The position numbers and the translations under genes were made by a program. Below, piece after piece: positions 4,134-51,237 of a stretch of 64,000 bases of DNA. The notes beneath the pieces are model-generated. The model was not told the origin of the DNA, ran no database searches, and saw only the letters and a program-made list of their open reading frames with translations. Every line of letters starts with the position of its first letter. Position 1 is the stretch's first letter. The stretch is from Candidatus Woesearchaeota archaeon (GTDB taxonomy: Archaea > Nanobdellota > Nanobdellia > Woesearchaeales > BM511): NCBI GenBank assembly GCA_002867475.1, contig PKTL01000069.1, forward strand, positions 9,382-73,381, given 5' to 3'.

Positions 4134-4514
4134 ATGAGAAGGGAAATGCCTCAATTAAATGAAGATGATATATCTTATGATTATGTTAATGAGTATGGGT
4201 ATTTATATGGATTAATCACATTATTGAAAAAAGAAGATGTTGATAAATCCAAGATTTCAAGAATTTATGAGGTTTCTGAAGAGGAATATGTATTTAGTAA
4301 GGCTCCAATGTTTTTAACATATACTGAAAGGTATGACACTGCAGATTTCTTTTTCACTATCAATGATAAAAATAGAGAAATAATTGAAAAATTAGATGAT
4401 ATAGCAATTAAAATAAGAAACCATATTGGTGATAAAGGGACTGATTTGGATTATTTAGCAAATCTTTTGAATGAAAGTAATTATTTAATAAAAAAAGAAT
4501 ATTTAAGATTTTAG
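4134..4514 (+). CDS. Hypothetical protein
   Basis: 126-aa ORF with upstream TTTAAATA box. Confidence 0.55.
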   Translation: MRREMPQLNEDDISYDYVNEYGYLYGLITLLKKEDVDKSKISRIYEVSEEEYVFSKAPMFLTYTERYDTADFFFTINDKNREIIEKLDDIAIKIRNHIGDKGTDLDYLANLLNESNYLIKKEYLRF

Positions 4515-10777: not shown

Positions 10778-12038
10778 AAAAATTCAAATAGATTATATAA
10801 CAAAAATAGAAGGCCACGCAAAATTATATGTAAAAATAGATGAGGGTATAGTAAAAGATGTTCGTATGGAAGTTTTTGAAGGTGCAAGACTTTTTGAAAG
10901 CCTTCTCATTGGTAAAAAATATGACGAAGTCCCTATAATAACTTCAAGGATCTGCGGGGTTTGTCCTCAAGCACACAGCATAGCATCAATTGACGCAATC
11001 GAAAAAGCATTTGGTCATGTACCTAATAAATCAATTGAGACACTCAGGGAATTATTATTGATTGGTCAAATAATTAAAAGCCACACATTACATCTTTATT
11101 TTTTAGCTTTACCTGATTTTTTCAATAAGAGAAGTGTAATAGAACTTGCTAAAGAACAAAAAGAAGTGTTGAATCTTGGCATAAGATTGAAGAAATTAAG
11201 TAATGAGATTACAACAATCATTGGTGGAAGAGAGATACATTCAATAACAAATATTCCTGGAGGATTCACAAAAGCGCCAACTGATGAAGAATTGACCACT
11301 CTTCAAAAAAATATAAAATCTTCTTTGGAAGATTCACTTGAAGGAATAAAGCTTTTTTCATCATTTAGCGTTCCTGACTACTCCAATAAAACAGAATATC
11401 TTTATTTGAAAAAAGATGAAAATCCAAATGTTAAAGGGACTGTGATCTGCAGCGATAATATATGTAATTCTGTTGAGAAATATGCTGATTTGATGAATGA
11501 GTTTGTCGAAGAATATAGTAGTGCAAAACATGTCACTATTGGAGAAAAAAGCTTTTTTGTTGGAGCACTTTCAAGAATAAATCAAACACTTATCCCTGAT
11601 GATATTAAAAAAATTCTAGATAAAAATAGTATACTGTTTCCAAGTTATAACCCTTATTACAATAACCTTGCACAATGTATCGAAATCCATATATTACTTC
11701 AAAAAGCTAAAGATCTCATCAAAAAAATTGATGTTGGAGAAGTATTTCATCATAAGATCACTCCAAAGAAAGGAAAGGCAGTAAGTGCATTAGAAGCGCC
11801 AAGAGGGATATTATTTCATGAATATTCATTTGATGATAAGGGTTATGTGACAAAAGCAAATATAATAACTCCAACAACTCAAAATTTAAAGAACATGGAA
11901 AATGACATCATGAAAATATTGCCTTCTCTGCTCGATAAACCTGAAGAAAAGATAAAGTTTGAACTGGAAAAGCTGATTAGAGCATATGATCCTTGTATCA
12001 GTTGCTCAACTCATTTCTTAGATGTCATTTGGGAATGA
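10770..12038 (+). CDS. hydA: [NiFe]-hydrogenase large subunit, copy 2
   Basis: L1 RICGVCPQAH, L2 DPCISCSTH. Confidence 0.95.
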   Translation: MVKKIQIDYITKIEGHAKLYVKIDEGIVKDVRMEVFEGARLFESLLIGKKYDEVPIITSRICGVCPQAHSIASIDAIEKAFGHVPNKSIETLRELLLIGQIIKSHTLHLYFLALPDFFNKRSVIELAKEQKEVLNLGIRLKKLSNEITTIIGGREIHSITNIPGGFTKAPTDEELTTLQKNIKSSLEDSLEGIKLFSSFSVPDYSNKTEYLYLKKDENPNVKGTVICSDNICNSVEKYADLMNEFVEEYSSAKHVTIGEKSFFVGALSRINQTLIPDDIKKILDKNSILFPSYNPYYNNLAQCIEIHILLQKAKDLIKKIDVGEVFHHKITPKKGKAVSALEAPRGILFHEYSFDDKGYVTKANIITPTTQNLKNMENDIMKILPSLLDKPEEKIKFELEKLIRAYDPCISCSTHFLDVIWE

Positions 12039-12218
12039 TTCTAAAATAATTAAAAGAGAAGATCTGCGATGGATTATGAAAATTCATACATATTTTCCAT
12101 TTTTTCAAAATGAAAAACTACAATAAATTCATTTATTGATGAATTTAAGCATCTTTCTCTAAAAGAGAAAGATATATAAATCTAATACTCTATAAAACTA
12201 TTAAAAATAGGTGATTTT

Positions 12219-12875
12219 ATGGCTAATGATTATGCAATTGTTCCTGAAGAAGATTTCTCAAAATTAAAAAATAAGGTTGATAAGATAGAAAGTAACCCCT
12301 TTGGGGAAAGCAAAGAAGGAAAAGAATTAGTAACAACTCTAAAAGACTTAAACTCCTCAATGAGCGGTCTTGTAAACCTTTTCAATACGGCAACTGAAGA
12401 ATTAAAGATTGAAGAACATGATTCGTCTTTAATTGCTGAAAAAGTAGGGCCTTTGTTTGAAAAAATTGAAACTTTGGAATCACAAAATGAAAAGATTGCA
12501 AAAGGAATTGTTGCTGTTGCAGATATGGTAAAAGAATTGAAGATGGAAATCGAAGATGTTAAAAGTCAGATAAAACTAGGGTTTGAATCTAAAACTGAAA
12601 CTCCAAAACCGAAAACTGAATCTTTCAAAACGGAAACAACACAAACTCCTAATTTTCCAGATTCAGGAAACATGAATTTTAATCAACCAAATCAACCAGT
12701 ACCTAACAATAATACTGGGATGAATACAGGTTTTCAAACAAATAATAGCTTAAATGACTCATTTAGTGGACAAAACGGGCAAGGAATGAAACCTTTACCT
12801 ATGGATCCAGCACCAATGCCTCAAATGGGTGAAGAAAAAAATAAGGATTCTAAAAAAGGAATGTTTCATTTTTAA
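12219..12875 (+). CDS. Hypothetical coiled-coil protein with N/P/Q-rich tail
   Basis: ORF with GGTGA RBS. Confidence 0.7.
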   Translation: MANDYAIVPEEDFSKLKNKVDKIESNPFGESKEGKELVTTLKDLNSSMSGLVNLFNTATEELKIEEHDSSLIAEKVGPLFEKIETLESQNEKIAKGIVAVADMVKELKMEIEDVKSQIKLGFESKTETPKPKTESFKTETTQTPNFPDSGNMNFNQPNQPVPNNNTGMNTGFQTNNSLNDSFSGQNGQGMKPLPMDPAPMPQMGEEKNKDSKKGMFHF

Positions 12876-40576: not shown

Positions 40577-40733
40577 AATTATACTAAGTTCTGGTTAAAT
40601 AAAAAGCTTTTGTCTTTGAAAACTTTTTTATAATATTGTTTTCATATAATCATTTATGGATAGCTATTATTTAAATCTTTCGATTATTTTGTCTTTCATT
40701 AGTAGTAACATAAAAGACTTGATTTCGAATTGT

Positions 40734-40753
40734 AACTAACATCGCTGTTACAT
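40734..40753 (-). repeat. Site S1, collapsed attC-like mini-site
   Basis: AACTAAC-ATCGCT-GTTACAT. Confidence 0.7.
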
Positions 40754-40917
40754 ACCCCGAAACAAAGTTTATGATTGACTTTAGTCCAATCAATAAACGA
40801 CTTGAGAGTGCAACGAGGTCGACTGAAGGGAGAAGTTTTAGAGCCCGAAAAAGAGTTAGTTTTTCAAAGTAGTGACAAACCGTAAGATTTATATTTAATT
40901 TAATCGTGCTTTTTATT

Positions 40918-41283
40918 ATGTCAAAAAATAACGAAAAAAATTTATCAACTATAATGTATCTTGCAGAACAACTTGGTATTAATCTTGATGATAAAAGAAC
41001 TGCTATTGCTACACCTGAAGAAATGAGCACAGCAAGAATGTATGATGGTTCTTTAGAAGCTAGAGTAATTCCTAATTCTAGACCTGCTGTTGAAATTGAA
41101 ACTCCAAGAGGTCCAGGAATTTGGATAGAATTAGTTGACCACACTAGAGATTTAGCTCCAGAAGGAGCAATATATCAAATAAGAACTTACGTACCTAAAG
41201 AAGATCATAAAGAAGGTTTAACTGGAGATGTTTATTCTGTTTATGTTGGGAAAACTGGAATTATGCTTGATTTGCCAAAATAA
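40918..41283 (+). CDS. Hypothetical protein (cassette A cargo)
   Basis: ORF filling the cassette; TTTATA box at about 40888. Confidence 0.7.
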   Translation: MSKNNEKNLSTIMYLAEQLGINLDDKRTAIATPEEMSTARMYDGSLEARVIPNSRPAVEIETPRGPGIWIELVDHTRDLAPEGAIYQIRTYVPKEDHKEGLTGDVYSVYVGKTGIMLDLPK

Positions 41284-41321
41284 GTTGATAATTCTGCATT
41301 GAAATAGGGCTCTAAAATTGT

Positions 41322-41341
41322 ATGTAACATCGCTGTTAAAT
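41322..41341 (-). repeat. Site S2, collapsed attC-like mini-site
   Basis: ATGTAAC-ATCGCT-GTTAAAT. Confidence 0.7.
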
Positions 41342-41497
41342 ACTCCGAGTCCGAGTTTAACTTGAACTTTAGTTCTAAGATTAAACGAAACGAGAGCGCA
41401 ACGGGACAAGGAGCGACTAGCGACGCAGAGTAAATTAGAGTCTTATTCTTCAAAAGAGTGAAACGATGCATTGAAGCTAACTTAAAAGGGCAATTTT

Positions 41498-41800
41498 TTA
41501 TTCAAATTTGATATTTTCATATTTTTTAAGATGTTTAGAACTATGCTTATATACAACATCATGATGTTCATAATCAACAAAAAATACGGTTCCGTCATCT
41601 CCAAAAAATAAAATTACATAAGAATTATTCACATGAACACGTTTAAATTTCTTTAAATCTTATGAAAGATTTTTATAATGATATAAATTATCTGAATTTA
41701 GAATTTCATCTCTTTTATTAAGAATATTTTGAAGCTCTTTTCCTTTAAGCTTCTTAAGAGCTTTCTTGAAAAGATTGCCATATTTTCTTTTTCTCATCAT
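41498..41800 (-). pseudogene. relE: RelE-family toxin with premature TAA at 41660-41662 (cassette B)
   Basis: Manual translation MMRKRKY...HYKNLS*DLKKFKRVHV...YVILF...DYEHHD.VY; similar to 42512-42775. Confidence 0.8.
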
Positions 41801-42045
41801 AAATTAGCTCTATCTTTAAGTTCCTTTTCAAAGATATCAGCTTCTTCGTCTGATAAAAAAGAATTAGCATCTTTACTATTCAATCTTTCTAAATATTCTT
41901 CTCTTACTTTGAAATTATCAAAGATTTTTTCACGTGCAGCTTCACGCATGAATTCTTGAACATTCAAAAAACCATGATTTTTAGCATATTCTTTAGCTTG
42001 TTCTAAAAAATCTTCAGATAATCTTAGATTTATTTGCGTAGTCAT
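41797..42045 (-). CDS. RHH antitoxin (cassette B)
   Basis: MTTQINLRL..QEFMREAAREK; overlaps the toxin start. Confidence 0.8.
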   Translation of the reverse strand: MTTQINLRLSEDFLEQAKEYAKNHGFLNVQEFMREAAREKIFDNFKVREEYLERLNSKDANSFLSDEEADIFEKELKDRANL

Positions 42046-42133
42046 AATATTATATGATATTACATAATATTTAAAACTATCGCTTAATCTTAAAAAATTG
42101 CCCATTTTCAAAAAAAAGACTCTAATTTATTGT

Positions 42134-42159
42134 ATTTAACATCAGGATCGTTGTTAGTC
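42134..42159 (-). repeat. Site S3, short attC-like site
   Basis: ATTTAAC-ATCAGGATCGTT-GTTAGTC. Confidence 0.65.
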
Positions 42160-42287
42160 AGTGAGTCTGCAAGACGAACGAAGGAGCGAATAGCGACTGA
42201 CAGTATGACGCAGAGAGCCGAACGGGCTTAAACGTAAAATTTATATATGATTAAATAACATTAAATAATATTATTTAAGGTGATAAA

Positions 42288-42515
42288 ATGAGTATAAAAT
42301 CTTTTAACGTCGATGAAGACACATATGGGAAATTTTCCTCTTATTGTAAAGAAAATGGGATAAGTATGAGTAAACAAGTGGAAACCTTCATGAAATCAAT
42401 GATTGAAGAAGATCCACAAGTGAAACAAGAATACCTAGAAAAATTAGAAAGAATAAGAAAAGGAAAATTCGTAAAAGTAAACAACTTTGCTGAGAGATAT
42501 GGATTAAAAGAATGA
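42288..42515 (+). CDS. RHH antitoxin (cassette C)
   Basis: KSFNVD...F..YC...G..MSKQVE; ATGA overlap with the toxin. Confidence 0.8.
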   Translation: MSIKSFNVDEDTYGKFSSYCKENGISMSKQVETFMKSMIEEDPQVKQEYLEKLERIRKGKFVKVNNFAERYGLKE

Positions 42516-42775
42516 GTTATGAACTTGAAATCCATGAAGATTTAGATAGAACTTTTTCTAAACTTTCAAAGAAAAATAAGAAACAATTAGAAATAATCTT
42601 CAAAAAAGTTGATGAAATTCTAAAAAATCCATATCATTACAAACCTCTTCGTGGAGACATGAAAGGTTCAAGAAGAGTTCATATCGATAAACACTTCGTT
42701 CTAATATATGAAATTCTTAAAGAATCAAAAGTTGTTCGATTACTAGACTATAATCATCACGACAAAGTTTACTAG
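42512..42775 (+). CDS. relE: RelE/YafQ-family toxin (cassette C)
   Basis: NP.HYKPLRGDMKG.RRVHI...VLIY...HHDKVY. Confidence 0.9.
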   Translation: MSYELEIHEDLDRTFSKLSKKNKKQLEIIFKKVDEILKNPYHYKPLRGDMKGSRRVHIDKHFVLIYEILKESKVVRLLDYNHHDKVY

Positions 42776-42797
42776 TTCGGCTCTTGAGTAATATTGT

Positions 42798-42886
42798 AAC
42801 TAACATCGCTGTTAAATGAGGTTTTCTGATAAGAAAATCTGGAAGAGCGCCGAGCCGAGGCGCGAATCATTTAATCGCTGTTAGAC
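42798..42886 (-). repeat. Site S4, full attC-like hairpin (89 bp)
   Basis: TAAC-A-TC-GC..TTAAATGA...TCATTTAA..GC-T-GTTA with two internal sub-hairpins. Confidence 0.85.
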
Positions 42887-43007
42887 GACCCGAACCATAC
42901 AAAGTGAAGGTGAGAGCGCAGCGTGGCAAGAAAATCTATGATTTTCGCAGAGTTCTTTTGTTTGCCCGTACATAAATTTAAATAGTTACTTTGAATTAAT
43001 AATTATA

Positions 43008-43850
43008 ATGGTTTCACTTAATAAATATCTTAATATTCTTCAAAGAGGAATTGATAACTTTATTAGTTTTGAATCTAATTCAATTTTAGAGAAAAAACAA
43101 TTCCAAGCTAATTTTAATAGTGATGAAATTGAAAAAATCATCGAAGTAATTGAAAATCAAATCAAAATCATAAAAAAAGCGATTAAGCATGCAGATTTTT
43201 ATCGAATTCATCTTGAAGTTATGAATAATAAAGAACTTGTTGCATACATGGAAATTAACAAGAGAGTTCCATATTTTGAGTTCCGTTATAATCAAGTTTT
43301 TTCTCAACAAAAAAAAGTGATGGAGAAAAGATTAAAAGAATTAAGTAAAGAACAATCTAAAGCAATCAGTTCATGGAATTCAATAATAGGAATCTTTAAT
43401 ATATTCTGCAACGAATCATTACATTTACTAAAAAAACAAAGAAGATATTTAGAAAAATATGAAAAAAATCCTGCAAAATATACAAAGAAAAGTTTGGGAA
43501 ATAAAATGAGGAAATTTCTTAAAAATGACTTTGAAGGATTATTAAAAATTGAGGAAAAATTATTTTTAACTGTTCTTTATTCAAGTAAAAAAGAATCAGA
43601 GAATTTGAGAGAATTTGGTAAGGAAATTGAAAAATTATTACATTTAGAGGAATTCAAAATGTATCCTCATATCCCTGGTTTAGTCCTAAACATTTTTCCT
43701 GAGGCAGGTTTATCAGATATAGCATCTGCACCATTTCATGCAGCAGGATTTTTTCTTAGTATAATTCAAAGAACCAACAAATATTACAAAGAGTGGAACG
43801 AATTCATTAAAGATAATGCTTTAAAGAGCAAACAAAAGAATTTTGTCTAA
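43008..43850 (+). CDS. Hypothetical helical protein (cassette D cargo)
   Basis: 280-aa ORF whose TAA stop lies in the GTCTAAC core. Confidence 0.75.
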   Translation: MVSLNKYLNILQRGIDNFISFESNSILEKKQFQANFNSDEIEKIIEVIENQIKIIKKAIKHADFYRIHLEVMNNKELVAYMEINKRVPYFEFRYNQVFSQQKKVMEKRLKELSKEQSKAISSWNSIIGIFNIFCNESLHLLKKQRRYLEKYEKNPAKYTKKSLGNKMRKFLKNDFEGLLKIEEKLFLTVLYSSKKESENLREFGKEIEKLLHLEEFKMYPHIPGLVLNIFPEAGLSDIASAPFHAAGFFLSIIQRTNKYYKEWNEFIKDNALKSKQKNFV

Positions 43851-43933
43851 CATCGCGATTAAGAGAAGTTATTTTGCAAAAATAATTTGGATGAGGGCGC
43901 TGCAAGGCCCGAATCTCTTAATCGCTGTTACAT
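43845..43933 (-). repeat. Site S5, full attC-like hairpin (89 bp)
   Basis: TAAC-A-TC-GCGATTAAGAGA...TCTCTTAATCGC-T-GTTA. Confidence 0.88.
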
Positions 43934-44043
43934 ACCCCGAAACAAAGCTTAACTTGTCGAAGACTAAGATTAAGCGACTTGAGAGTGCAACGAGGTCGAG
44001 AATTTATGAAATAAATTCGAAGAAGTTTTGTTTTTAGCGCCGT

Positions 44044-44298
44044 TTACAATTTCTTGTAAACCTTGCTTCGATGATCTGCATGAATGACATATATAATCAA
44101 TTTATTATCTTCAATGTCAGCGATTACTCTGTAATCTCCAACTCTTAATTTATATTCAGAACGACTTGATAATTTTACAAAGTAATGATGAGGGTTTTCT
44201 TTTGTTTCTTGAAGCTTCTTAAAAATTCTTTGAGAAATGTCTTTAGGTAATTTTTCTAAATATGTTGATACTTTTTCATCGAAAACTAATTCATACAT
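44044..44298 (-). CDS. relE: RelE/ParE-family toxin (cassette E)
   Basis: ENP....KL....YKLRVGDYRVI...HR..VY. Confidence 0.92.
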   Translation of the reverse strand: MYELVFDEKVSTYLEKLPKDISQRIFKKLQETKENPHHYFVKLSSRSEYKLRVGDYRVIADIEDNKLIIYVIHADHRSKVYKKL

Positions 44299-44299
44299 T

Positions 44300-44539
44300 T
44301 TACAATCCTAATCTTTTAGACATTTCTGCTTCAGAAACTAAATTTCCTTGTTTGATACGTGCTCTTGCTGCTTCAATAGCTTCAATAGTTTCTTTACTAA
44401 GCTCAGGTTCATCTTTAACATGTTTTACAATATGAACTAGTTTAGTAATCACTTCATCATAACTTTCATTACGATATTCTCTAAATTTATCAAGTTCGGA
44501 CTTTGTCCCGTCATGAATTTTAATAGTTGTCGCAGTCAT
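44300..44539 (-). CDS. Antitoxin (cassette E)
   Basis: TTIKI...K..L...ESYDEVI..L; directly upstream of relE. Confidence 0.8.
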   Translation of the reverse strand: MTATTIKIHDGTKSELDKFREYRNESYDEVITKLVHIVKHVKDEPELSKETIEAIEAARARIKQGNLVSEAEMSKRLGL

Positions 44540-44626
44540 TTTATATCACCTTTGAGTTTACTTCAGTATACCATAGTAAACTAAAGTATATAAATGTATG
44601 CTTTAAGGCGCTAAAAACAAAATTGT

Positions 44627-44688
44627 ATGTAACTTCGGGTTTTGACGAAGTTTTTCGTCAGAAAAATTTTGTTTAAACCCTGTTACGC
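44627..44688 (-). repeat. Site S6, attC-like hairpin (62 bp)
   Basis: GTAAC-T-TC-GGGTTT...AAACCC-T-GTTAC. Confidence 0.8.
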
Positions 44689-44969
44689 GAACCGAAAGCC
44701 TTTTGCTGAGGGAAGTTTTTGCTCGTGCTAATCTTAGTCAGACATACAATAATATATTATTATACTATGTATAATATATTATGTATGGTCTAGACTATCA
44801 AGATTAGTAGCACAGGAGTCAAACCTCCTTAGCACACAAAAAGTCTTAGTTCGAGCTCCACAGGGCTTGAATTTCGTAAAAAACTTTTTACGATGACTAT
44901 TTGCTTCTGAAATCGAAGCAGGCAAAAGCTATGCTGCTATTTTGTGCTAGAGCAAAAATTTTGCGTAAC
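44682..44969. other. Gene-less, highly structured cassette F
   Basis: No ORF in the track; nested inverted repeats across its length. Confidence 0.75.
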
Positions 44970-45056
44970 ATCGCGATTAAGAGAAGTTATTTTGGAACAA
45001 AATAATTTGGATGGAAAAGTCTGCAAGACTTTGGAATCTCTTAATCGCTGTTAGTT
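44963..45056 (-). repeat. Site S7, full attC-like hairpin (94 bp), close relative of S5
   Basis: Same outer stem as S5; different inner hairpin (AAAGTCTGCAAGACTTT). Confidence 0.88.
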
Positions 45057-45137
45057 TCTTCTGATAAGAACGAGGAATAACTGCAAGTGGTTTTTGACGA
45101 AGTCAAAAAATTCCGAAGAGTAATTTTTAGCCCCCAT

Positions 45138-45557
45138 TCAATATCTTTTAGTAATATAAAGAGTAGCTTTAAAATTATCAATATCTCCAGTTGAAAGAAA
45201 TCTACTTTCTAAACTTGGACCTAAGTATAAATTAGAAGTTTTATCAGCAGTAAAATTAGGCACTGGCATAATTCCTGCACACCCCATATACCCATCTTTT
45301 AGCTTTAATAATAAATCTTCTTCAGGTTCATCAAATTCAACCCCTGTTTGACTTAACATAAAATCAACTGGCGTAGAATAATTTTCTGCAAGTGAATATA
45401 ATCCTCTTCCAACAATAAAAATTGGACCTGTCATCACGATATGTTGAGGATTAAAAGGCATATCCTCTCCAGACATCATTCTTTGTGAGATTTCATTTCT
45501 CATAGATTCAATTGCAGCTTCAACAAAACCCATATGAATTGCGTTATTATCTTTCAT
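45138..45557 (-). CDS. Hypothetical protein (cassette G cargo)
   Basis: 139-aa ORF filling the cassette. Confidence 0.7.
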   Translation of the reverse strand: MKDNNAIHMGFVEAAIESMRNEISQRMMSGEDMPFNPQHIVMTGPIFIVGRGLYSLAENYSTPVDFMLSQTGVEFDEPEEDLLLKLKDGYMGCAGIMPVPNFTADKTSNLYLGPSLESRFLSTGDIDNFKATLYITKRY

Positions 45558-45622
45558 AAAAAGTGTAACTACTAAATAGTTTATATACTTTTCTTTTTTT
45601 AAAGGGGGCTAAAAATTATTGT

Positions 45623-45708
45623 AACTAACATCGGAATTTAACGAAGTCGCCGAAGGCGATTTGGGAAAAATGCGAGCCGAGCATTTTTCCGTTAAATTCC
45701 TGTTAGCC
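45623..45708 (-). repeat. Site S8, full attC-like hairpin (86 bp)
   Basis: CTAAC-A-TC-GGAATTTAACG...CGTTAAATTCC-T-GTTAG. Confidence 0.88.
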
Positions 45709-45941
45709 GACCCGCAGCTACGAGCGATGTTTTGAGCGGAGTGGCAAGGGCAAGGTTTAACTTGCTTGCAAGATTAAACCGCAGAGTTTTCTTACTGCCG
45801 AGAACTAGATAGGTGCCGTAGTTTTAACTTACTTTAGAAAAATCCTATACATAACGAGTGAAACGAGACAAATTAGTTCGCTAGAACTGGGGGCGTTCTT
45901 AAAAAAAATATTTTATGTTTAATAATTCATGAATTATTTTA

Positions 45942-47402
45942 TTAACATTTAATTGTGAATTTAATATTTATTGTTGAAGGGATATCTATTTCTATAAAAT
46001 CTGCTCGTAAAATTCCATTTTCTTCTATTCGAAATTGTGCATTAATTATATCATCATACTTATTTTGACCTAATTCAATACCACATTCTTTATCATCGCA
46101 CCATGAAGTATCTCTTTGAATATTTGTTGTGGTGTTTAAAGCATTTAATTCCATAAAACATTTTGATAAATTGTATTTATTTTCTTCCAATCTATATATG
46201 TATTCCCTATAATGTCCTACTGAATAATTTAATTTATTATTAATATAAATGCTTACTTTACAAGTATTATTTTCACAAGTTGTTAAATCATCATATTCAT
46301 ATCTTTTATTTCTATCTTCTTTAACAAAACCTTTAAGGATTAATTTTGAAATATTTTGATCTTTAATTTTAAATTTATTAAATTTTAATAGAATCATACC
46401 TTTATTTTCATTTAGCAAAATTTTTTCAAATCCGAATCTATCGAAAGAATCTTTTAAATTATTGTTTGAAATATCATAAAACCCATCAATTATTTTATTA
46501 TTTTTATCTGTTAATAATTCAAATTTATCATCATGATCCGCACTAGTATCTATATTATATTTTCCATAATTTATAGGTATTAGAGGTATAGTACTTGTCA
46601 TTAATCCAAAATTATTTTTGATTTTAATGGGGACTTCAATATTTCTATAAATATATTCACTATTGCCATGGTCAATATAATAATTTACTAATTTTTCATC
46701 ACCATATGAAAAAAATGGAATAGATATTATTGTTGATATTATACCTAATAAAATTATAATAGGAATTGCATAAATAATAAATTTTTTAGTATTAAAATTT
46801 TTTGCTAATTTTTCATTTTTATCCTTTTTTAGAAATTCCTTGATTGATTTATCAAAATTATTAAATATTGATTTGAAATAAACATTATAAATAATAAAAC
46901 AAATCATCAAAAGCATTAAAAAGAGTATAAATAATATGATTCCCTCAGCCAAAAATTCATGTAAATAAGGAATTAATGCAATAATAATAATATTTTTGAT
47001 GAGAATTATTAGAAAAAATAATTGGATAAATAATAAAGATATAAACCAATTTCCTAAATCTTTTTTTGAACATTTATGTTTGTTACGATAAATTATAAAA
47101 AAAATAAAAATAAAACCTATTCCTGCAAAAATAATCCCTAATTGTGTGATTTCCCAAGACTTAGAAATGTCAAAATCTAAATTAAACCTATTGCTAAAAT
47201 AAGTTCCTAAAAAGAAAGTAAATAAAGCAGTTATAAATAAAAAAAGCCAAATAACTATTAAATCAATTACAGAATTAGAATTATTCAATTTGAATTTTCC
47301 TTTATTTTGGAATTTTGACCATAGTAAAAAAGTTAATAATATTGAAACTACTAAATACCCAGGCATATTAACCAAAAGATCAAATAGATTTTCCCAACCC
47401 AT
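45942..47402 (-). CDS. Multi-TM membrane protein with soluble C-terminal domain (cassette H)
   Basis: 486 aa, very AT-rich, several TM segments. Confidence 0.7.
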   Translation of the reverse strand: MGWENLFDLLVNMPGYLVVSILLTFLLWSKFQNKGKFKLNNSNSVIDLIVIWLFLFITALFTFFLGTYFSNRFNLDFDISKSWEITQLGIIFAGIGFIFIFFIIYRNKHKCSKKDLGNWFISLLFIQLFFLIILIKNIIIIALIPYLHEFLAEGIILFILFLMLLMICFIIYNVYFKSIFNNFDKSIKEFLKKDKNEKLAKNFNTKKFIIYAIPIIILLGIISTIISIPFFSYGDEKLVNYYIDHGNSEYIYRNIEVPIKIKNNFGLMTSTIPLIPINYGKYNIDTSADHDDKFELLTDKNNKIIDGFYDISNNNLKDSFDRFGFEKILLNENKGMILLKFNKFKIKDQNISKLILKGFVKEDRNKRYEYDDLTTCENNTCKVSIYINNKLNYSVGHYREYIYRLEENKYNLSKCFMELNALNTTTNIQRDTSWCDDKECGIELGQNKYDDIINAQFRIEENGILRADFIEIDIPSTINIKFTIKC

Positions 47403-47539
47403 AAAATTATTTATTAAATCTTTTATTTAAAAAGCTTTCTTGTGAGTTTGCAAAGATTGGGATAAATTTCTCAATTATTTATCCCAAGACAGCGTTTAAA
47501 AAAGAAAGAGTTATATAATTAAATAATAAATTGAAATAG

Positions 47540-48205
47540 ATGTCAGAAAAATTAACAGGTTCAGAAATTGAAAAAAAAGTATATGAACACATTATAAAAA
47601 GTGTTGGTATGGGTTATACTACTGACTTTAATCCTTTAAATTTATCTACAGAAGGGATTGCTGATTGTCTTGGTTTATCAATGGAAGAAGTTGAAGAAGC
47701 AATCAACAAACTAAAAGGTGAAGGTGAATCAACCAATATTGAGAGAATAGAATCTGTGAAACCTAAATTTGAAATTTGGTTACCTAAAACTAAAAAAGGT
47801 AAAGAAGTTTTAGATGAATTATGTAATTCAGGCGTTGCTATTAAAGGTTCAATGCAATGGTTTTACACTTTTTTACTTTTGGCAGCTTCATATATTTTCA
47901 CATTTGAAAAACCATACTTAGCAAATGTGTTAGAATTAAAATCATTTAATGAGTATTTTGTATGGGCTGTTATTTTTACAGGGATTTCATCATACTTTGG
48001 AAGTTATTTGGCTCATAAATGGCATCAAATAAATTATGAAATGGAAAGAATAAAAGGCGGCAAATATTACATTTATGCATTTATATTATTGATTTCAGGA
48101 ATAATATATAGTTGGATGAAAGAAATAGATGTTGCACTTATCATTACAAGTGTAGGAACAATAGCAAATTTGGTATTAGTAATATATCAAATCATAAAAA
48201 AATAA
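47540..48205 (+). CDS. HTH-like N-terminus plus TM protein (cassette H)
   Basis: STEGIADCLGLSMEEVEEAI segment followed by TMs. Confidence 0.65.
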   Translation: MSEKLTGSEIEKKVYEHIIKSVGMGYTTDFNPLNLSTEGIADCLGLSMEEVEEAINKLKGEGESTNIERIESVKPKFEIWLPKTKKGKEVLDELCNSGVAIKGSMQWFYTFLLLAASYIFTFEKPYLANVLELKSFNEYFVWAVIFTGISSYFGSYLAHKWHQINYEMERIKGGKYYIYAFILLISGIIYSWMKEIDVALIITSVGTIANLVLVIYQIIKK

Positions 48206-48206
48206 A

Positions 48207-48917
48207 ATGGCAAAGAAAAAATCATATGAAGAAGGGAGTATTGCAGATTTTGCAGCTCAGGGATTAAAAAATATTAAGAAATTATCAGGAAGTTCTTTAA
48301 TGAGTGAAAAATTAGTTGGTTTAAGCACATTTTTATTTTCATTGGTATTTACCTTTAGTTTCGGTAAATGGTTAATACAACCCGAACAGTTATATGAAAT
48401 AAGTTCAGTAGTTATTTTAATTTTAGGATTAATGATTGGTCTAGGATTATCTTCAGGTTATTCATTTATATTGTTAGCAATTTCAGACTTTGCAAAAGAT
48501 AAAATTCAAAGTTTAAGATTAGGAATTGTTTTCTTATTTATTTCAATTCCTTTGTCAATAGCGGGATTAGCATTAAATTCAAACTTTTTCATAGCTTCTA
48601 GTTGGATATTAATTGTTGTTCAACTTGCATTAATCTTGTTAAGTTTCTTTTTTAGCTTTTCATCTCAGAGCATTCCAGATATTAAAGTAAATGCTTCAGG
48701 TATATGGAAATCTATAGGTAGAGCTGGGTCAATTGCAAGTATATTAGGTTTAGTATTGGCTGTTTTAGTAATACTCGCACCACAATATTTCGGACAAACA
48801 TTATACCAATGTATTGATGGAACTGTTCAAAAAAGTTTAGAAGCATGTCCAAATATAAAAGAATATTTAGTCACATTTGCTAAAGAACAAGGATATAATT
48901 TAACTAATATTAACTAA
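48207..48917 (+). CDS. Membrane protein (cassette H)
   Basis: Multi-TM ORF. Confidence 0.65.
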   Translation: MAKKKSYEEGSIADFAAQGLKNIKKLSGSSLMSEKLVGLSTFLFSLVFTFSFGKWLIQPEQLYEISSVVILILGLMIGLGLSSGYSFILLAISDFAKDKIQSLRLGIVFLFISIPLSIAGLALNSNFFIASSWILIVVQLALILLSFFFSFSSQSIPDIKVNASGIWKSIGRAGSIASILGLVLAVLVILAPQYFGQTLYQCIDGTVQKSLEACPNIKEYLVTFAKEQGYNLTNIN

Positions 48918-48944
48918 ATTAAAAAATATGGGGAAAAAATAAAA

Positions 48945-49250
48945 ATGGAAAATAAAGAAATATTTATTCAAGCTATAAATGAAAAAAAGAAAGTGAAAGT
49001 GAAAATCAATACTGATGAAAAAGGAATTATTATAAGAGATTGTATTCCTTTTGATTTCGGAACTGGTAAATTGCCAGGAATCAGATATCATTTTCTCGAT
49101 TTAACTAGTCCTGATGGACCTCACAATTTATCTGTTTTACCTAATAAATTATTAGAAATTGAAATTTTAGATGAAACATTTAATCCTGCTGATTACATTA
49201 AATGGAAACCTAATTGGAAATTAGCAAGAGATTGGGGAGAATTTTCTTAG
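48945..49250 (+). CDS. Hypothetical protein, possibly WYL-like fold (cassette H)
   Basis: AI..KK.V.....R.C.P.DFG....I.IL.ETF.P pattern resembles stand-alone WYL-like proteins. Confidence 0.55.
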   Translation: MENKEIFIQAINEKKKVKVKINTDEKGIIIRDCIPFDFGTGKLPGIRYHFLDLTSPDGPHNLSVLPNKLLEIEILDETFNPADYIKWKPNWKLARDWGEFS

Positions 49251-49496
49251 ATTTTAAGAACGCCCCTTTTTATTTTCTTTTTTTTCTAAAGTAAGTTAAA
49301 ATTTGGGTGGAGTGCGAGGTTTTCTCGTGCGTAACCGTTAAACATTTGTTAGATACAATCTTTCCAATGTATATTATACGAAGTTTTTTCTAAGCCTTCT
49401 CCTCTATGAGAAGAGCTTTCCCTTTTAACGAAGGCACCTACCTTTTTAGATTCCCGGGCACGTTTTGTCGTCTACAAAAGGCAGTAAGAAAATTTT

Positions 49497-49540
49497 GGCT
49501 AACATCTTTTAGGTGAATTTTTATGAGAATAAAAGATGTC
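49497..49540 (-). other. Candidate attI-like primary recombination site
   Basis: Minus strand CACCTAAAAGAT-GTTAGCC; last core before the integrase, with no closing GTTA box. Confidence 0.6.
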
Positions 49541-49596
49541 TTTTATTTTTAAGTTAAAACCCAGTTTTAGGTTTTGATATGTTTTTTGCTAAAGAC

Positions 49597-49797
49597 TTAT
49601 TTGTCTTTAGCGTGGCTGAGAAGCTCTTCATGGAGAAGCTCAAGCTTTTCAATTGTTCTTATGTGCATGTCTTTCATGACTGCGAACTGATATTTTTTAC
49701 TATTGTCTTTTTTTAGTAGCCAGTTCAACTTATTTGATAATCCTATTATTAGATCTTCATATTGTGTTAAGAGTTCGATTGCTTGTTTTTTATTCAT
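49597..49797 (-). CDS. Small hypothetical protein pointing into the array
   Basis: 66 aa, GAGGTGAT RBS at 49803-49810. Confidence 0.6.
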   Translation of the reverse strand: MNKKQAIELLTQYEDLIIGLSNKLNWLLKKDNSKKYQFAVMKDMHIRTIEKLELLHEELLSHAKDK

Positions 49798-49950: not shown

Positions 49951-50014
49951 TAGTCAAATGAGATTTAAAAATCATAGATAACATTTAAATAATATGAGTG
50001 GCTATAAATTGAAT

Positions 50015-50233
50015 ATGACAAAATACACGGCATTTATACAAAAAGATGAAGATATGTATGTTGCTACATGTGTAGAACTTGGCACGGTTAGTCAAGGATA
50101 CACGGTTGAAGAAGCATTAGATAATCTAAAAGAAGCAACCGAACTTTACCTTGAAGAAATGCCAGGAGAAGAAGTTTCTGATTATTCTTTTACTACCACT
50201 TTTGAAGTTGGTGGTAAAAGTGTTAAAGCTTAA
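50015..50233 (+). CDS. hicB: HicB-family antitoxin
   Basis: YVA.C.EL...SQG.T.EEAL.NL.EA.ELYLE. Confidence 0.9.
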   Translation: MTKYTAFIQKDEDMYVATCVELGTVSQGYTVEEALDNLKEATELYLEEMPGEEVSDYSFTTTFEVGGKSVKA

Positions 50234-50450
50234 AAAAATTTCTGGAAAAAACTGTGTTAAACTAATTTGTAATAAGTTCAGTTTTAAATATGTTAGGCAA
50301 TCTGGAAGTCATATAATTCTTAAAAAAATAAGTGGAGATACCACAATTACTTGTGTTGTTCCTAATCATTCTGAAATTAAAATTAACACTCTGAAAGGAT
50401 TATTAAAACAAGCAAAAATTAGACAAGAGGATTTTATAAAATATCAATAG
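50220..50450 (+). CDS. hicA: HicA-family toxin
   Basis: RQSGSH....VVPNH.EI...TL...LKQA; GTG start after GGTGG. Confidence 0.88.
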   Translation: MLKLKKISGKNCVKLICNKFSFKYVRQSGSHIILKKISGDTTITCVVPNHSEIKINTLKGLLKQAKIRQEDFIKYQ

Positions 50451-50460
50451 AGGTGATAAA

Positions 50461-51237
50461 ATGAATGTGTCAAAAATAATATTTGATAAATTGTTTATTC
50501 AAGGTTGTAGTATGAAAACCATAACTGCTTATGAATTGCAGCTAGAAAAGTTTCTTGAGTGGGTTGATAAGCCTCCATTAAAAGTCAAACAAAAAGATAT
50601 TGAAGAGTATACCAAATATCTAAGAAGAAATGATTATGCCCATTCAAGTATTAGGCTTTCCCTTAATGCTATCAAATATTATTTTGTGAAAATAATGAAG
50701 AGAAGGTTTGAGATTTCCATGCCTAAAAAACATGAGAAACACACAGGCGTTTGTGATAGAAATGAGATTGTTGAAGCAATTGATAATTTAAGAAATCCAA
50801 AGCACAAATTACTTCTTGCATTGCTATATGGTTCTGGTGTTCGTGTTAGTGAAGCTGTAAAGATTAGGCATGATGATATTTTTGATGATTATGCAGTTAT
50901 CAGGCAAGGTAAAGGAAGTAAAGATAGAAAGATAATAGTTTCTGATATTTTTCTAGAATTATATGAACCTTTTAAAAAAAGAAAAGGTTTTGTTTTTAAT
51001 GGTAGAAATTCTCATTTGACTGTTAGAAGTGTTCAAGAGATAGTTAAAAAAGCGTTTAAGGATAGACATGTTCATCCTCATATGTTAAGAGCAAGTTTTG
51101 CAACGCACCTTTACGAGTCAAGTGTTGATAAGCATAAGATCCAAAGATTACTTGGTCATAAGGATGTGAGAACTGTTGAAGTTTATACTAAGTATTCAAA
51201 GTTCGATCCAGAAGTTAAAAGCCCTTTAGATATTTAA
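50461..51237 (+). CDS. Tyrosine recombinase, integron-integrase-like but without the IntI-specific insertion
   Basis: LLYGSGVRVSE, GKGSKDR, HMLRASFATH, LLGH, VYT; C-terminal KSPLD. Confidence 0.93.
   Translation: MNVSKIIFDKLFIQGCSMKTITAYELQLEKFLEWVDKPPLKVKQKDIEEYTKYLRRNDYAHSSIRLSLNAIKYYFVKIMKRRFEISMPKKHEKHTGVCDRNEIVEAIDNLRNPKHKLLLALLYGSGVRVSEAVKIRHDDIFDDYAVIRQGKGSKDRKIIVSDIFLELYEPFKKRKGFVFNGRNSHLTVRSVQEIVKKAFKDRHVHPHMLRASFATHLYESSVDKHKIQRLLGHKDVRTVEVYTKYSKFDPEVKSPLDI

Follow-up and report, generated by a model that had tools for sequence, protein, structure and literature searches.

Cassette-specific inverted repeats in an archaeal integron-like array as the probable closing stem of a folded recombination element

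Introduction

Two questions about integrons are open: how their cassettes are made, and how recombination of a folded single strand originated from Xer-type recombination of duplex DNA. The array described here, from a Woesearchaeota archaeon, adds the question of what is achieved by inverted repeats that lie just inside the two ends of each cassette and bring them together by a sequence peculiar to that cassette. To our knowledge, sub-terminal, cassette-specific inverted repeats are not known from classical integrons; the literature that we searched on integrons yielded no description of cassette-end repeats of this kind, in line with the original prediction, which likewise knew of none in canonical cassettes.

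Anatomy of the array

In the window (the whole stretch of 64,000 nucleotides that was analysed), an integron-like cassette array occupies positions 40737-49540 of the + strand, with a tyrosine recombinase gene at its fixed end (50461-51237). The host archaeon has a small, AT-rich genome. Nine attC-type sites (junctions J0 to J8) lie on a single strand at spacings below 1.1 kb, except for 3.9 kb across cassette H; judged from anatomy only, this is the arrangement asked of an integron: two or more attC sites of like orientation, spaced by less than 4 kb. No core motif was found elsewhere in genome G000, outside the array. The parts are as follows.

40729-40750, + strand: junction J0, ATTG-TAAC-TAAC-ATCGCT-GTTA, short 14-nt site at the array end farthest from the recombinase
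40751-40835, + strand: module of cassette A, GC-rich, with hairpins, ending in GAGAAG
40836-40846, + strand: left arm of A, 11 nt
41307-41317, + strand: right arm of A, flush to TTG
41317-41338, + strand: junction J1, short site, ATTG-TATG-TAAC-ATCGCT-GTTA
41339-41430, + strand: module of cassette B, ending in GCAGAG
41431-41444, + strand: outer left arm of B, 14 nt (25 nt if 3 mismatches are allowed)
41488-41500, + strand: inner (nested) left arm of B, 13 nt
42091-42103, + strand: inner right arm of B
42116-42129, + strand: outer right arm of B, flush to TTG
42129-42156, + strand: junction J2, minimal hairpin form, 20 nt, TAACATCAGGATCGTTGTTA
42157-42213, + strand: module of cassette C
42214-42223, + strand: left arm of C, 10 nt, overlapping AGAG of the purine motif
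42775-42784, + strand: right arm of C, 9 nt from TTG, the exception
42793-42883, + strand: junction J3, attC-type hairpin with two inner hairpins; TAAC at 42801, closing GTTA at 42880-42883
42884-42952, + strand: module of cassette D, ending in GCAGAG
42953-42965, + strand: left arm of D, 13 nt
43828-43840, + strand: right arm of D, flush to TTG
43840-43930, + strand: junction J4, long attC-type hairpin: TAACA/TGTTA, TC bulge, 12-bp perfect stem and three-way interior
43931-44025, + strand: module of cassette E, homologous to the A module (82 nt, 83% identity)
44026-44041, + strand: left arm of E, 16 nt
44607-44622, + strand: right arm of E, flush to TTG
44622-44685, + strand: junction J5, attC-type hairpin with GGGTTT/AAACCC stem
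44686-44715, + strand: module of cassette F, the shortest
44716-44724, + strand: left arm of F, 9 nt
44950-44958, + strand: right arm of F, flush to TTG
44958-45053, + strand: junction J6, long attC-type hairpin, L stem as in J4
45054-45120, + strand: module of cassette G
45121-45135, + strand: left arm of G, 15 nt
45604-45618, + strand: right arm of G, flush to TTG
45618-45705, + strand: junction J7, long attC-type hairpin, L stem of 11 bp
45706-45786, + strand: module of cassette H
45787-45799, + strand: outer left arm of H, 13 nt
45822-45842, + strand: middle nested left arm of H, 21 nt
45890-45904, + strand: inner nested left arm of H, 15 nt
49252-49266, + strand: inner right arm of H
49281-49301, + strand: middle right arm of H
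49480-49492, + strand: outer right arm of H, flush to TTG
49493-49540, + strand: junction J8, site nearest the recombinase, TAACATCTTTTA..., 10-bp hairpin
50461-51237, + strand: XerA-like tyrosine recombinase, 258 aa, without the IntI additional domain

Long hairpins make up 29 of 73 cores and consist, in order, of 5 bp (TAACA/TGTTA), a net 2-nt bulge on the 5' arm (TC in 23 of them) and a perfect stem of 6-12 bp, with neither an unpaired central spacer nor single bulged (extrahelical) bases in any of the 29. The conserved ATTG has no pairing partner. GNA triloops favour the array strand over the opposite one (7 vs 0 in the window and 78 vs 4 at 78 junctions of other loci, against a background of 10 vs 4), and in all six loci that hold both, the recombinase gene is found on the array strand, downstream of the array.

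This neighbouring XerA-like recombinase is the likely enzyme for the array. Its closest solved relative is the XerA-like protein of P. abyssi (4a8e), to which it aligns in one stretch; against VchIntIA (2a3v) the alignment falls into two blocks (query 17-170 with chain 19-180, and query 186-245 with chain 246-305), leaving about 50 residues of the 2a3v chain without counterpart. Assignment as an IntI-type integrase was rejected, the I2 domain (around patch III) being missing and the TIGR02249 score being 132.1 bits against a cut-off of 265, as was assignment as a XerA equivalog: NF040815 is the best profile match, yet it reaches 171.8 bits against a cut-off of 220. At the recombinase end of the array, J8 has the form TAACATCTWTTA, and because this form recurs beside the recombinase gene in five other genomes, 137-817 nt upstream of it, sites of the J8 type are candidate attI sites.

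Cassette-specific pairing in the window and its relatives

All nine repeats quoted in the original prediction (A, B1, B2, C, D, E, F, G and H) are present at the left-hand positions it gave, with exact reverse complements at the right-hand ones. The right copy, said to nearly abut the core except in C, ends directly before the TTG of the conserved ATTG-xxxx-TAAC in seven of the eight cassettes and lies 9 nt further in in C. The left copy follows a purine motif (GAGAAG, GCAGAG, GAAGAG, GGGAAG and similar); in the window, the stretch from the closing GTTA to this copy measures 34-99 nt, close to the 25-90 nt claimed.

The same pattern was sought in homologous arrays, using the 48 cassettes with two well-formed bounding cores in the window and in loci L021-L052 (32 loci of relatives). 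With the right arm forced against TTG, and the search for its complement confined to the cassette's own first 500 nt, an exact flush repeat of at least 11 nt was found in 23/48 cognate but only 8/2256 non-cognate pairings, and one of at least 9 nt in 25/48 and 41/2256, respectively. Unanchored local alignment placed 21 of the 48 cassettes beyond the 99th percentile of 500 non-cognate pairs, and an equal-sized control region downstream of each core gave repeats of 10 nt at most. Repeat-positive cassettes occur in at least 12 genomes. That every cassette has a repeat is therefore true of the window (8/8) and not of the family, where 23/48 lack a flush repeat of at least 9 nt; part of these are probably mis-delimited.

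The idea that pairing rather than sequence is conserved largely stands. Among 25 arms, pairwise identity has a median of 0.38, with 2 of 300 pairs at 0.8 or above; the arms are, however, compositionally constrained, with T as first base in 25/25 and C as last base in 20/25, a GC content of 12% in the outer and 45% in the inner half, and TTAG in 7/25 (shuffled mean 1.5). Related shells remain perfectly paired despite changes in both arms (A vs E, and two cassettes of L036), and 24 of 25 stems are perfect, free of wobble pairs and abruptly ended. Such sharply bounded stems fit recent generation or homogenisation by some mechanism as well as they fit selection. Two or three repeat pairs are nested in B, in H and in cassettes of G009.

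Pairing of the cassette ends starts at the R boxes. The boxes read xxxTAAC and GTTAxxx, with an exact match to RYYYAAC/GTTRRRY in some only, and complementarity between the left GTTA-xxx(x) and the right xxx(x)-TAAC of the same cassette, which is the classical R'/R'' relation of integrons, was found in 29/48 cognate and 318/2256 non-cognate pairings. In the window, own R-box pairing amounts to 9, 9, 6, 7, 9, 7, 7 and 7 bp in A to H. This complementarity of each cassette's own ends, read from the sequences, shows the putative crossover position to be the TAAC/GTTA R box, as in integrons. In an array, the four variable bp of R' need not match R'', according to Loot 2017 (PMC5371416). Cognate R boxes accompany the repeat in 22 of the 25 repeat-bearing cassettes; an L021 cassette (11405-12299) has kept its repeat (17 nt with 1 mismatch, by eye) with R boxes that are not cognate.

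A probable closing stem for the recombination element

On balance, the cassette repeats are probably the outermost helix of a large, cassette-borne folded recombination structure. In the circular cassette, the + strand, which would be the strand made to fold as single-stranded DNA, would run through the right arm, ATTG, xxxx-TAAC, TC bulge, attC-type hairpin, GTTA-xxxx, the module (30-130 nt, with small hairpins and a purine run at its end) and the left arm, so that the two arms would close an element of 115-221 nt via a perfect stem of 9-16 bp. Strand exchange would take place inside this element, at the TAAC box, and for that reason one end of the integrated cassette would keep about 20-27 nt, made up of an R-box remnant, ATTG and an arm, and the other end all that remains; in the array, the split element would appear as a sub-terminal inverted repeat flanking the cargo. 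The stem would form in vivo and may serve the recombinase, by lengthening the duplex beside the R box or by clamping the site off from the cargo, and it could make the circle a better substrate than the hybrid sites of the array.

When the cassette ends were rejoined in silico and folded to minimum free energy with DNA parameters, the whole repeat stem was predicted in 8/8 cassettes, closing a multiloop that holds the hairpins of attC and module; with the cognate arm, the predicted fold was 6-13 kcal/mol better than with a non-cognate one. The hairpins in the module of cassette G show compensatory changes in its homologues in G009 and G353. J0 is J4 without its hairpin interior, and A and E have hairpin, R' and module in common, which indicates that these parts move together; hairpin 3' half, R' and module are likewise conserved between G353 and G023. 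The clamp can be judged more closely: when the right arm was scrambled in a partition-function model, R-box pairing was predicted to be unchanged in seven of the eight cassettes and higher in D, so that a clamp stabilising the R box is without thermodynamic support. The modelled gain of R-box pairing in the circle comes from R-box extension, and the module breaks the helix on one strand between R box and stem.

Alternative readings of the repeats

The original prediction had the single-stranded cassette fold into a panhandle with the cargo in its loop, which could synapse the cores for excision, stabilise the circle or record how cassettes are built. What stood is that the cassette-specific end pairing is real and kept across genomes; what did not is that it starts at the repeats rather than at the cassette's own R boxes. 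In the closed circle, moreover, the arms lie about 100-220 nt apart, with the attC hairpin and the module between them, and one contiguous element with a closing stem is thus a simpler reading than a panhandle that loops out the cargo. A panhandle acting in excision, in which arms and own R boxes pair across the cargo of the single-stranded array and favour or template excision, be it by synapsing both flanking sites or by displacing the neighbour's R-box half, is compatible with the closing stem; we consider it unlikely. Both arms and own R boxes are complementary, own R boxes pair over 7-9 bp where hybrid array sites reach about 4-5 bp, the four variable bp have a higher predicted pairing in the circle (0.33-0.98) than in the array form (0.00-0.59), and the GNA loops are on the folding strand. 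The arms are, however, 220-3700 nt apart in the array, so that their pairing requires long single-stranded stretches, no excision or insertion joints were seen in the single read run containing the window stretch, and the circular cassette explains the same anatomy without long-range pairing.

The proposal that the repeats record how cassettes are built is kept alive by end-shells that are shared around unrelated cargo. Homologous shells, nested repeats included, surround unrelated cargo in A and E, in two cassettes of L036 and in L047/L051, with no cargo homology among the 48 cassettes. The repeats could be a footprint of construction, cargo having been put into the stem loop of an ancestral cargo-less element (R-box half, hairpin, purine run to GAG, small stem-loop, short linker, R-box half) whose stem halves now flank it. 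The interior of long attC hairpins repeats the part order of a cassette (AAGTT, hairpin, ATTTGG..GAG, GC-rich stem with GNA loop, GAA), with a TTTGG/TTGGG motif in 26 of 29, and the perfect, sharply bounded stems and the two or three nested pairs also point this way; cassette genesis is 'largely unknown' according to Loot 2017 (PMC5371416). We nevertheless regard such a footprint as quite improbable: homologous shells are to be expected of an element that is unbroken in the circle, where shared ends need no loop insertion, the self-similarity of hairpin interior and cassette is a by-eye reading of sequences, and no insertion enzyme is in view, a reverse transcriptase not having been found in genome G000 (95% complete).

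Two further readings carry little weight with us. Homology between related modules ends exactly at the purine run, with different arms after it (a loose end at 45121), cargo faces either way (19 along the array strand and 27 against it) and one cassette combines a repeat with non-cognate R boxes, all of which would suit terminal inverted repeats that bound independent units of cargo, whether like those of transposons or as sites at which cargo is inverted in a fixed scaffold. This is very improbable, since arms so unlike between cassettes could be read by no single transposase; in addition, 14 bp is below the length of a full tyrosine-recombinase core site, cognate R boxes go with nearly all of the repeats, and there are no transposase genes within the cassettes. 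An RNA-level role, in which the arms would join within one transcript, be it to bring mRNA ends together or to form a processing stem of the kind known from archaeal rRNA operons, is scarcely credible. In some relatives, T runs often come after the inner nested arms and TATA-like stretches before them (by eye), but cargo occurs on both strands with respect to the shell, the hairpin loops are GNA triloops, none of the 15 tetraloop hairpins listed for the window junctions being of the GNRA type, no Rfam family was matched at E<=1 within the array (the single weak match in the 18 kb searched lies at 49576-49701), and a search for RNA read runs found none.

Comparison with known systems

Bacterial integrons and the window array share tandem cassettes split by imperfect-palindrome sites with RYYYAAC-like and GTTRRRY-like boxes, first bases that complement the cassette's own R'', one folding strand, a recombinase gene at the fixed end and toxin-antitoxin cassettes (here ParE twice, with HicAB adjoining the array). 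Unlike in bacterial integrons, end pairing in the window extends past the 7-bp R box into a cassette-specific stem of 9-16 bp, a module of 30-130 nt lies on one strand between R box and stem, a 2-nt bulge followed by a perfect stem stands in the hairpins where bacterial attC has an unpaired central spacer and extrahelical bases, the recombinase lacks the IntI domain and cargo orientation is mixed.

Archaeal metagenome genomes, including DPANN, contain attC arrays, with 6 IntI genes per 539 attC sites in 75 genomes, and these arrays are reported to have the same structure as bacterial ones (Ghaly et al. 2022, PMC9668308). Like the window array they are attC arrays in archaea, mostly without detectable IntI; the main text of that report contains neither the term 'inverted repeat' nor end-pairing repeats or a XerA-like neighbour, and its data files may list related arrays. 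The CTX-phi attP hairpin, recombined by XerCD, is a folded single strand that imitates a duplex core site, has no extrahelical bases and is acted on by a Xer-type enzyme without an I2-like domain (Escudero et al. 2016, PMC4792948), as would hold for the window array too; CTX-phi, however, is a phage integrating at dif via host enzymes, whereas the window has a many-cassette array and a linked recombinase gene. Archaeal XerA/dif involves the same recombinase family (Cortez et al. 2010, PMC2958812), and the short junctions of the window can be read as dif-like, with two inverted arms of about 11 nt and a 6-nt centre (TAAC-ATCGCT-GTTA). In Thermococcales, dif is present once per chromosome and not beside xerA (Cortez et al. 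2010, PMC2958812), whereas the window sites are many, direct, tandem and gene-linked, mostly with a long hairpin insertion in the centre. A chromosome dimer resolution site (a single, unlinked 11-6-11 bp dif) was ruled out, the sites being multiple, tandem and beside the gene.

Implications

Of 401 genomes of the order, 183 carry the core motif (177 of 395 once six unpublished ones are set aside), and this integron-like family comprises hundreds of candidate arrays. It stands out by its Xer-like recombinase, by hairpins that lack the features read by the IntI domain, and by an element larger than attC whose cassette-specific closing stem would have its halves land at opposite cassette ends. 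More tentatively, and as a possibility that we rate as doubtful, the arrays may be a Xer-based 'proto-integron', in which a XerA-type enzyme without I2 acts on duplex-mimicking hairpins devoid of extrahelical bases, each cassette carries a palindromic element of about 115-220 nt closed by its own stem, and genes are put into the loop of a pre-existing unit. If true, the arrays would stand midway from CTX-like Xer recombination of hairpins to true integrons, as an intermediate of the kind speculated about by Escudero et al. 2016 (PMC4792948), and the cargo-less mini-units inside hairpins and the shells around unrelated cargo would show how cassettes are made.

The repeats also provide a sequence signature by which cassettes can be delimited and their ends matched in fragmented metagenome assemblies. 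Even if the stem should prove dispensable, the shells shared around unrelated cargo constrain models of cassette genesis, and the family bears on both the origin of cassettes and the evolution of integrons from Xer recombination at duplex sites.

Architecture of the array and its cargo

Between 40.7 and 49.5 kb, eight cassettes (A-H) lie in tandem on the + strand, and the nine junctions that delimit them (J0-J8, the recombination sites, with J0 furthest from the recombinase gene) are built to one common plan. Read on the + strand, a junction starts with the right repeat arm of the cassette before it, (A)TTG, four variable bases and TAAC; its middle is a hairpin closed by (T)GTTA and followed by 3-4 variable bases; and it ends with a GC-rich module with a terminal purine run (GCAGAG, GAAGAG, GAGAAG or similar), after which the left arm of the next cassette begins. 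The GC content is 46% in the modules and 30% in the genome around the array.

Features of the array and its surroundings (window coordinates)
40737-40750, 41325-41338, 42137-42156, 42801-42814, + strand: junction sites of minimal form, 14 or 20 nt
41500-42111, 42288-42775, 44044-44539: cargo, comprising two ParE-type pairs and the ribbon-helix-helix gene of cassette B
44716-44958: cassette F, 243 nt arm to arm
49493-49540, + strand: J8, the site closest to the recombinase, of the form TAACATCTWTTA and unlike the inter-cassette sites
49994-50450: hicB/hicA, directly upstream of the recombinase gene
50461-51237, + strand: recombinase gene, 258 aa

The cargo is typical for integron arrays and includes two ParE-type toxin-antitoxin pairs, one ribbon-helix-helix protein and several ORFs that match no Pfam family; no intact toxin ORF of at least 50 aa was listed alongside the ribbon-helix-helix gene of cassette B on the same strand. 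Cargo orientation is mixed, with 19 on the array strand and 27 on the opposite one. A NOG1-type GTPase and DUF7343/TrmB-type regulators are encoded near the array and point to an archaeal genome. In the genome holding the window (1.67 Mb, 84 contigs, 95% complete), the array motif has no further occurrence outside the array. An Rfam search of 36-54 kb gave no match within the array, the sole match in that range being a weak one to STnc210 (49576-49701, E 0.57), and a search for tRNA genes gave none.

Two cassettes stand apart. Cassette F lacks an ORF of at least 50 aa, and contains a long imperfect hairpin at about 44725-44815 (read by eye). In the sequencing run that holds the window, another contig gives a variant of 44853-44936 that differs by 10 substitutions and 3 insertions. 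The unit may represent a non-coding element, of RNA or of DNA. Cassette H is composite: its repeats form three pairs nested in one another (of 13, 21 and 15 nt, in 45787-45904 and 49252-49492), and its four ORFs are spread over both strands. A minus-strand core-like site (TTGTATCTAAC...) lies in the right spacer, with a module-like stretch after it, so that H looks, from its sequence, as if an inverted cassette lay within an outer shell (the cassette end parts around the cargo).

Among 73 cores from the window and its relatives, 29 have long hairpins of the type TAACA/TGTTA, with a net 2-nt bulge in the 5' arm and a perfect stem of 6-12 bp free of single bulged bases. Inside, these hairpins form three-way junctions in which the pattern AAGTT ... 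ATTTGG is conserved, and 26 of the 29 contain a TTTGG/TTGGG motif. A 20-nt minimal form recurs in 10 of the 73 cores and, since it is found repeatedly in relatives, is perhaps more than a product of decay.

Cassette-specific inverted repeats

According to the original prediction, every cassette has its own sub-terminal inverted repeat, and all nine repeat strings that it listed are exact at the coordinates given. The right arm lies near the core, as claimed, abutting TTG in seven of the eight cassettes (a 'flush' position) and standing 9 nt off in C; the left arm directly follows the purine run on its 3' side, in a register that is fixed across the cassettes of the window. We found the core motif ATTGNNNNTAACATCRS in 183 of 401 sampled genomes of the order (177 of 395 without the six unpublished genomes G211, G184, G245, G134, G374 and G337, all of which matched), and a reversed control pattern is rare. 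We analysed 32 loci of relatives beside the window, none of them from those six genomes, taking as a cassette any stretch between consecutive well-formed cores on one strand, 200-6000 nt apart; this gave 48 cassettes including those of the window, among which cassette H is not counted because its right core fails the core expression.

In an anchored test, the right arm was forced flush to TTG and its exact complement was sought in the first 500 nt of the cassette. Repeats of at least 11 nt were found for 23 of 48 cognate pairs (both ends of one cassette) and 8 of 2256 non-cognate pairs (ends of different cassettes), and repeats of at least 9 nt for 25 of 48 and 41 of 2256, respectively. With a looser core definition the figures at 11 nt or more are 28 of 76 against 58 of 5700, and in an unanchored alignment 21 of the 48 cassettes exceed the 99th percentile of the null. 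The 25 flush stems measure 9-16 bp (mode 14), and 24 are perfect with abrupt ends. Their first base is T in all 25 and their last base C in 20; the outer part is AT-rich and the cargo side GC-rich, and otherwise they are mutually dissimilar. Nested repeat pairs are present in cassettes B and H and in the genome of one relative (G009).

The cassettes with flush repeats come from 12 genomes. That every cassette carries a repeat holds for the eight of the window but not for the relatives, about half of whose cassettes are without a flush repeat, partly because some of the delimited 'cassettes' contain unrecognised sites; in one unit of locus L029 the true right end lies inside the delimited stretch. 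The left arm of the cassette at 4376 in locus L047 has no partner of at least 9 nt anywhere in its 20-kb locus. A hairpin motif, TTCTTTTTCTAAAAGAA, occurs near cassette right ends, 5' of the repeat arm, in several genomes (L021 10330-10399, L029, L047).

A proposed structured element in the circular cassette

Joining the two ends of a window cassette in silico, as in a circle, gives a site region of 115-221 nt that folds with a complete repeat stem in all eight cases, whichever exchange point is chosen. In the predicted fold, the attC hairpin and the module hairpins sit in a multiloop closed by the repeat stem, and the R box of the rejoined site is lengthened to 7-10 bp; folds with the cognate arm are 6-13 kcal/mol better than those with a non-cognate arm. 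We lean, by a modest margin, towards the view that the repeats are the closing stem of a recombination element larger than attC, which is split by integration. In a circular cassette, the two arms would become neighbours and bound a single contiguous structured element, and integration would divide it between the two ends of the cassette, since only about 11 nt separate the exchange point from one of the arms.

A contiguous element in the circle would be expected to leave homologous shells at both ends of unrelated cargo, and such shells are seen in cassettes A and E, in two neighbouring cassettes of locus L036 and between loci L047 and L051, with blastn matches confined to the ends and nothing from tblastx in the cargo interior. 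Both between A and E and in the L036 pair, the arms have changed on both sides and pairing is still perfect, and the modules show compensatory changes between genomes. All-against-all blastn and tblastx searches of the 48 cassettes found no cargo homology, only end-shells matching, and a search of 300 other genomes from the order with the cassette G protein as query gave no hit at E<=1e-8. Because homology is restricted to the end-shells, whether homologous cassettes keep the pairing could be asked for shells alone, and there (A/E and the L036 pair) it is kept. Overall, the predicted observation was borne out and extended to other genomes, while its interpretation found partial support.

The exchange point and the R boxes

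Within each cassette, the left GTTA-xxx complements the right xxx-TAAC, over 9, 9, 6, 7, 9, 7, 7 and 7 bp in A-H. Such complementarity is found for 29 of 48 cognate and 318 of 2256 non-cognate pairs of ends, and 22 of the 25 repeat-bearing cassettes have cognate R boxes. This agrees with the classical integron rule; in the portions of Loot et al. (2017, PMC5371416) consulted, the variable part of R' in a classical array attC is described as that of the next cassette. Cassettes A and E have the R' box, module and R'' box in common, and J0 corresponds to J4 minus the hairpin interior, lost between two ATCGC repeats. One junction hairpin of genome G353 (L047 76-235) is a hybrid with two arms that are not complementary. 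The 3' half matches genome G023 (L029), as do the R' box and the module behind it, and the 5' half does not; this pattern points to a putative exchange within a hairpin or homologous recombination between sites. By both lines of evidence, a hairpin is inherited with the module on its right, which places the + strand exchange point at the TAAC box. Contigs of the single run that holds the window, which may be the source of the sequence, show neither excision nor deletion joints at the borders of cassettes, which is uninformative either way.

What the repeats may do

A partition-function model predicts far better R-box pairing for the circle than for the array form in seven of eight cassettes, a gain that stems from the cognate R-box bases. 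The repeat as a stabiliser of the R box is not supported by this model, as scrambling one arm left the predicted pairing unchanged in seven of eight cassettes and raised it in D. A role as a substitute for a missing L box is likewise unsupported: repeats accompany 12 of 18 long left hairpins and 13 of 30 that are short or unparsed, and are no commoner where the hairpin is minimal. G.T versus A.C mismatches were uninformative as a test of the strand, there being just three internal mismatches, all in cassette B. The minimal-hairpin result, the mixed cargo orientation and the half of cassettes without a flush repeat allow more than one function of the repeats. There is room for the view that they are a footprint of cassette construction: the stems are perfect with sharp ends, repeat pairs are nested in B, H and G009, and the order of parts within the hairpins resembles that of a cassette. 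A reverse-transcriptase route to cassettes was set aside, as RVT_1 was not found in the genome holding the window, which is 95% complete.

The recombinase and a candidate attI

The recombinase matches Pfam Phage_integrase (7e-30). Its highest score is against the model of archaeal XerA, yet lies under the cut-off of that model, and it falls far short of the integron-integrase cut-offs. It aligns in one piece with the P. abyssi XerA-like protein 4a8e and in two pieces with VchIntIA, with about 50 residues missing at the IntI-specific domain. In the genome holding the window, the protein matches only itself at E<=1e-5. In all six loci that contain an array and a recombinase gene (the window, L021, L022, L037, L050 and L051), the gene, which encodes a XerA-like enzyme lacking the IntI additional domain, follows the array in the downstream direction and on the same strand. 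When the opposite strand is read, the order is that of a classical integron: integrase, attI, cassettes. The TAACATCTWTTA form of J8 also precedes the recombinase gene in five other genomes (L055, L061, L070, L074, L078), and we regard it as a candidate attI.

Across the order, many such recombinase genes begin 200-2700 nt from a contig start, as expected if repeat arrays break assemblies. A single clade of array-linked recombinases is not supported: a 34-row tree requires 9 changes of the label, a result equalled by 90 of 500 shuffles, with labels that are crude, one 'none' row having an array 1.5 kb upstream.

Comparison with known systems

Integrons in archaea are already known, with 539 attC sites and six IntI genes described from 75 genomes in the parts seen of Ghaly et al. 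(2022, PMC9668308). The main text of that paper does not contain the term 'inverted repeat', and our search of the literature on cassettes found no panhandle or similar feature. For DPANN integron recombinases, literature from 2022 on gave nothing beyond the same paper, whose supplements may list these arrays. Together with the classical attC dimensions (57-141 bp, R box of 7 bp) in the sections consulted of Loot et al. (2017, PMC5371416), these negatives are the basis for saying that classical cassettes are not known to carry such repeats.

The I2 domain of IntI and the extrahelical bases are described as co-evolved by Escudero et al. (2016, PMC4792948, in the parts consulted). Both are defining features of integrons, and both are missing here. 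The same parts of that paper describe the hairpin of CTX-phi, a mimic of duplex DNA on which XerCD acts with no I2-like domain; by this description the present system is similar, but it has cassette arrays. With both defining features missing, the evidence speaks more for a system that works like an integron than for one that is an integron. We describe it as a variant of the integron type, with a proposed recombination element that extends beyond attC, a split cassette-specific closing stem and, as its likely enzyme, a Xer-like recombinase.

The putative folding strand

Small loops bear on which DNA strand folds. Counting hairpins with a stem of at least 4 bp and a three-base loop, GNA triloops (GAA, GCA, GTA) number 7 on the array strand and 0 on its complement in the window. 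Across 78 junctions from other loci the numbers are 78 and 4, or 85 against 4 with the window; background sequence gives 10 against 4. Among the window-junction loops listed, none is a GNRA tetraloop. d(GNA) triloops form unusually stable DNA mini-hairpins and, with this excess in view, the + strand is read as the putative folding ('bottom-like') DNA strand, with which the position of the recombinase gene agrees. The bias towards GAA, GCA and GTA loops would offer a simple marker of the folding strand for these attC-type sites.
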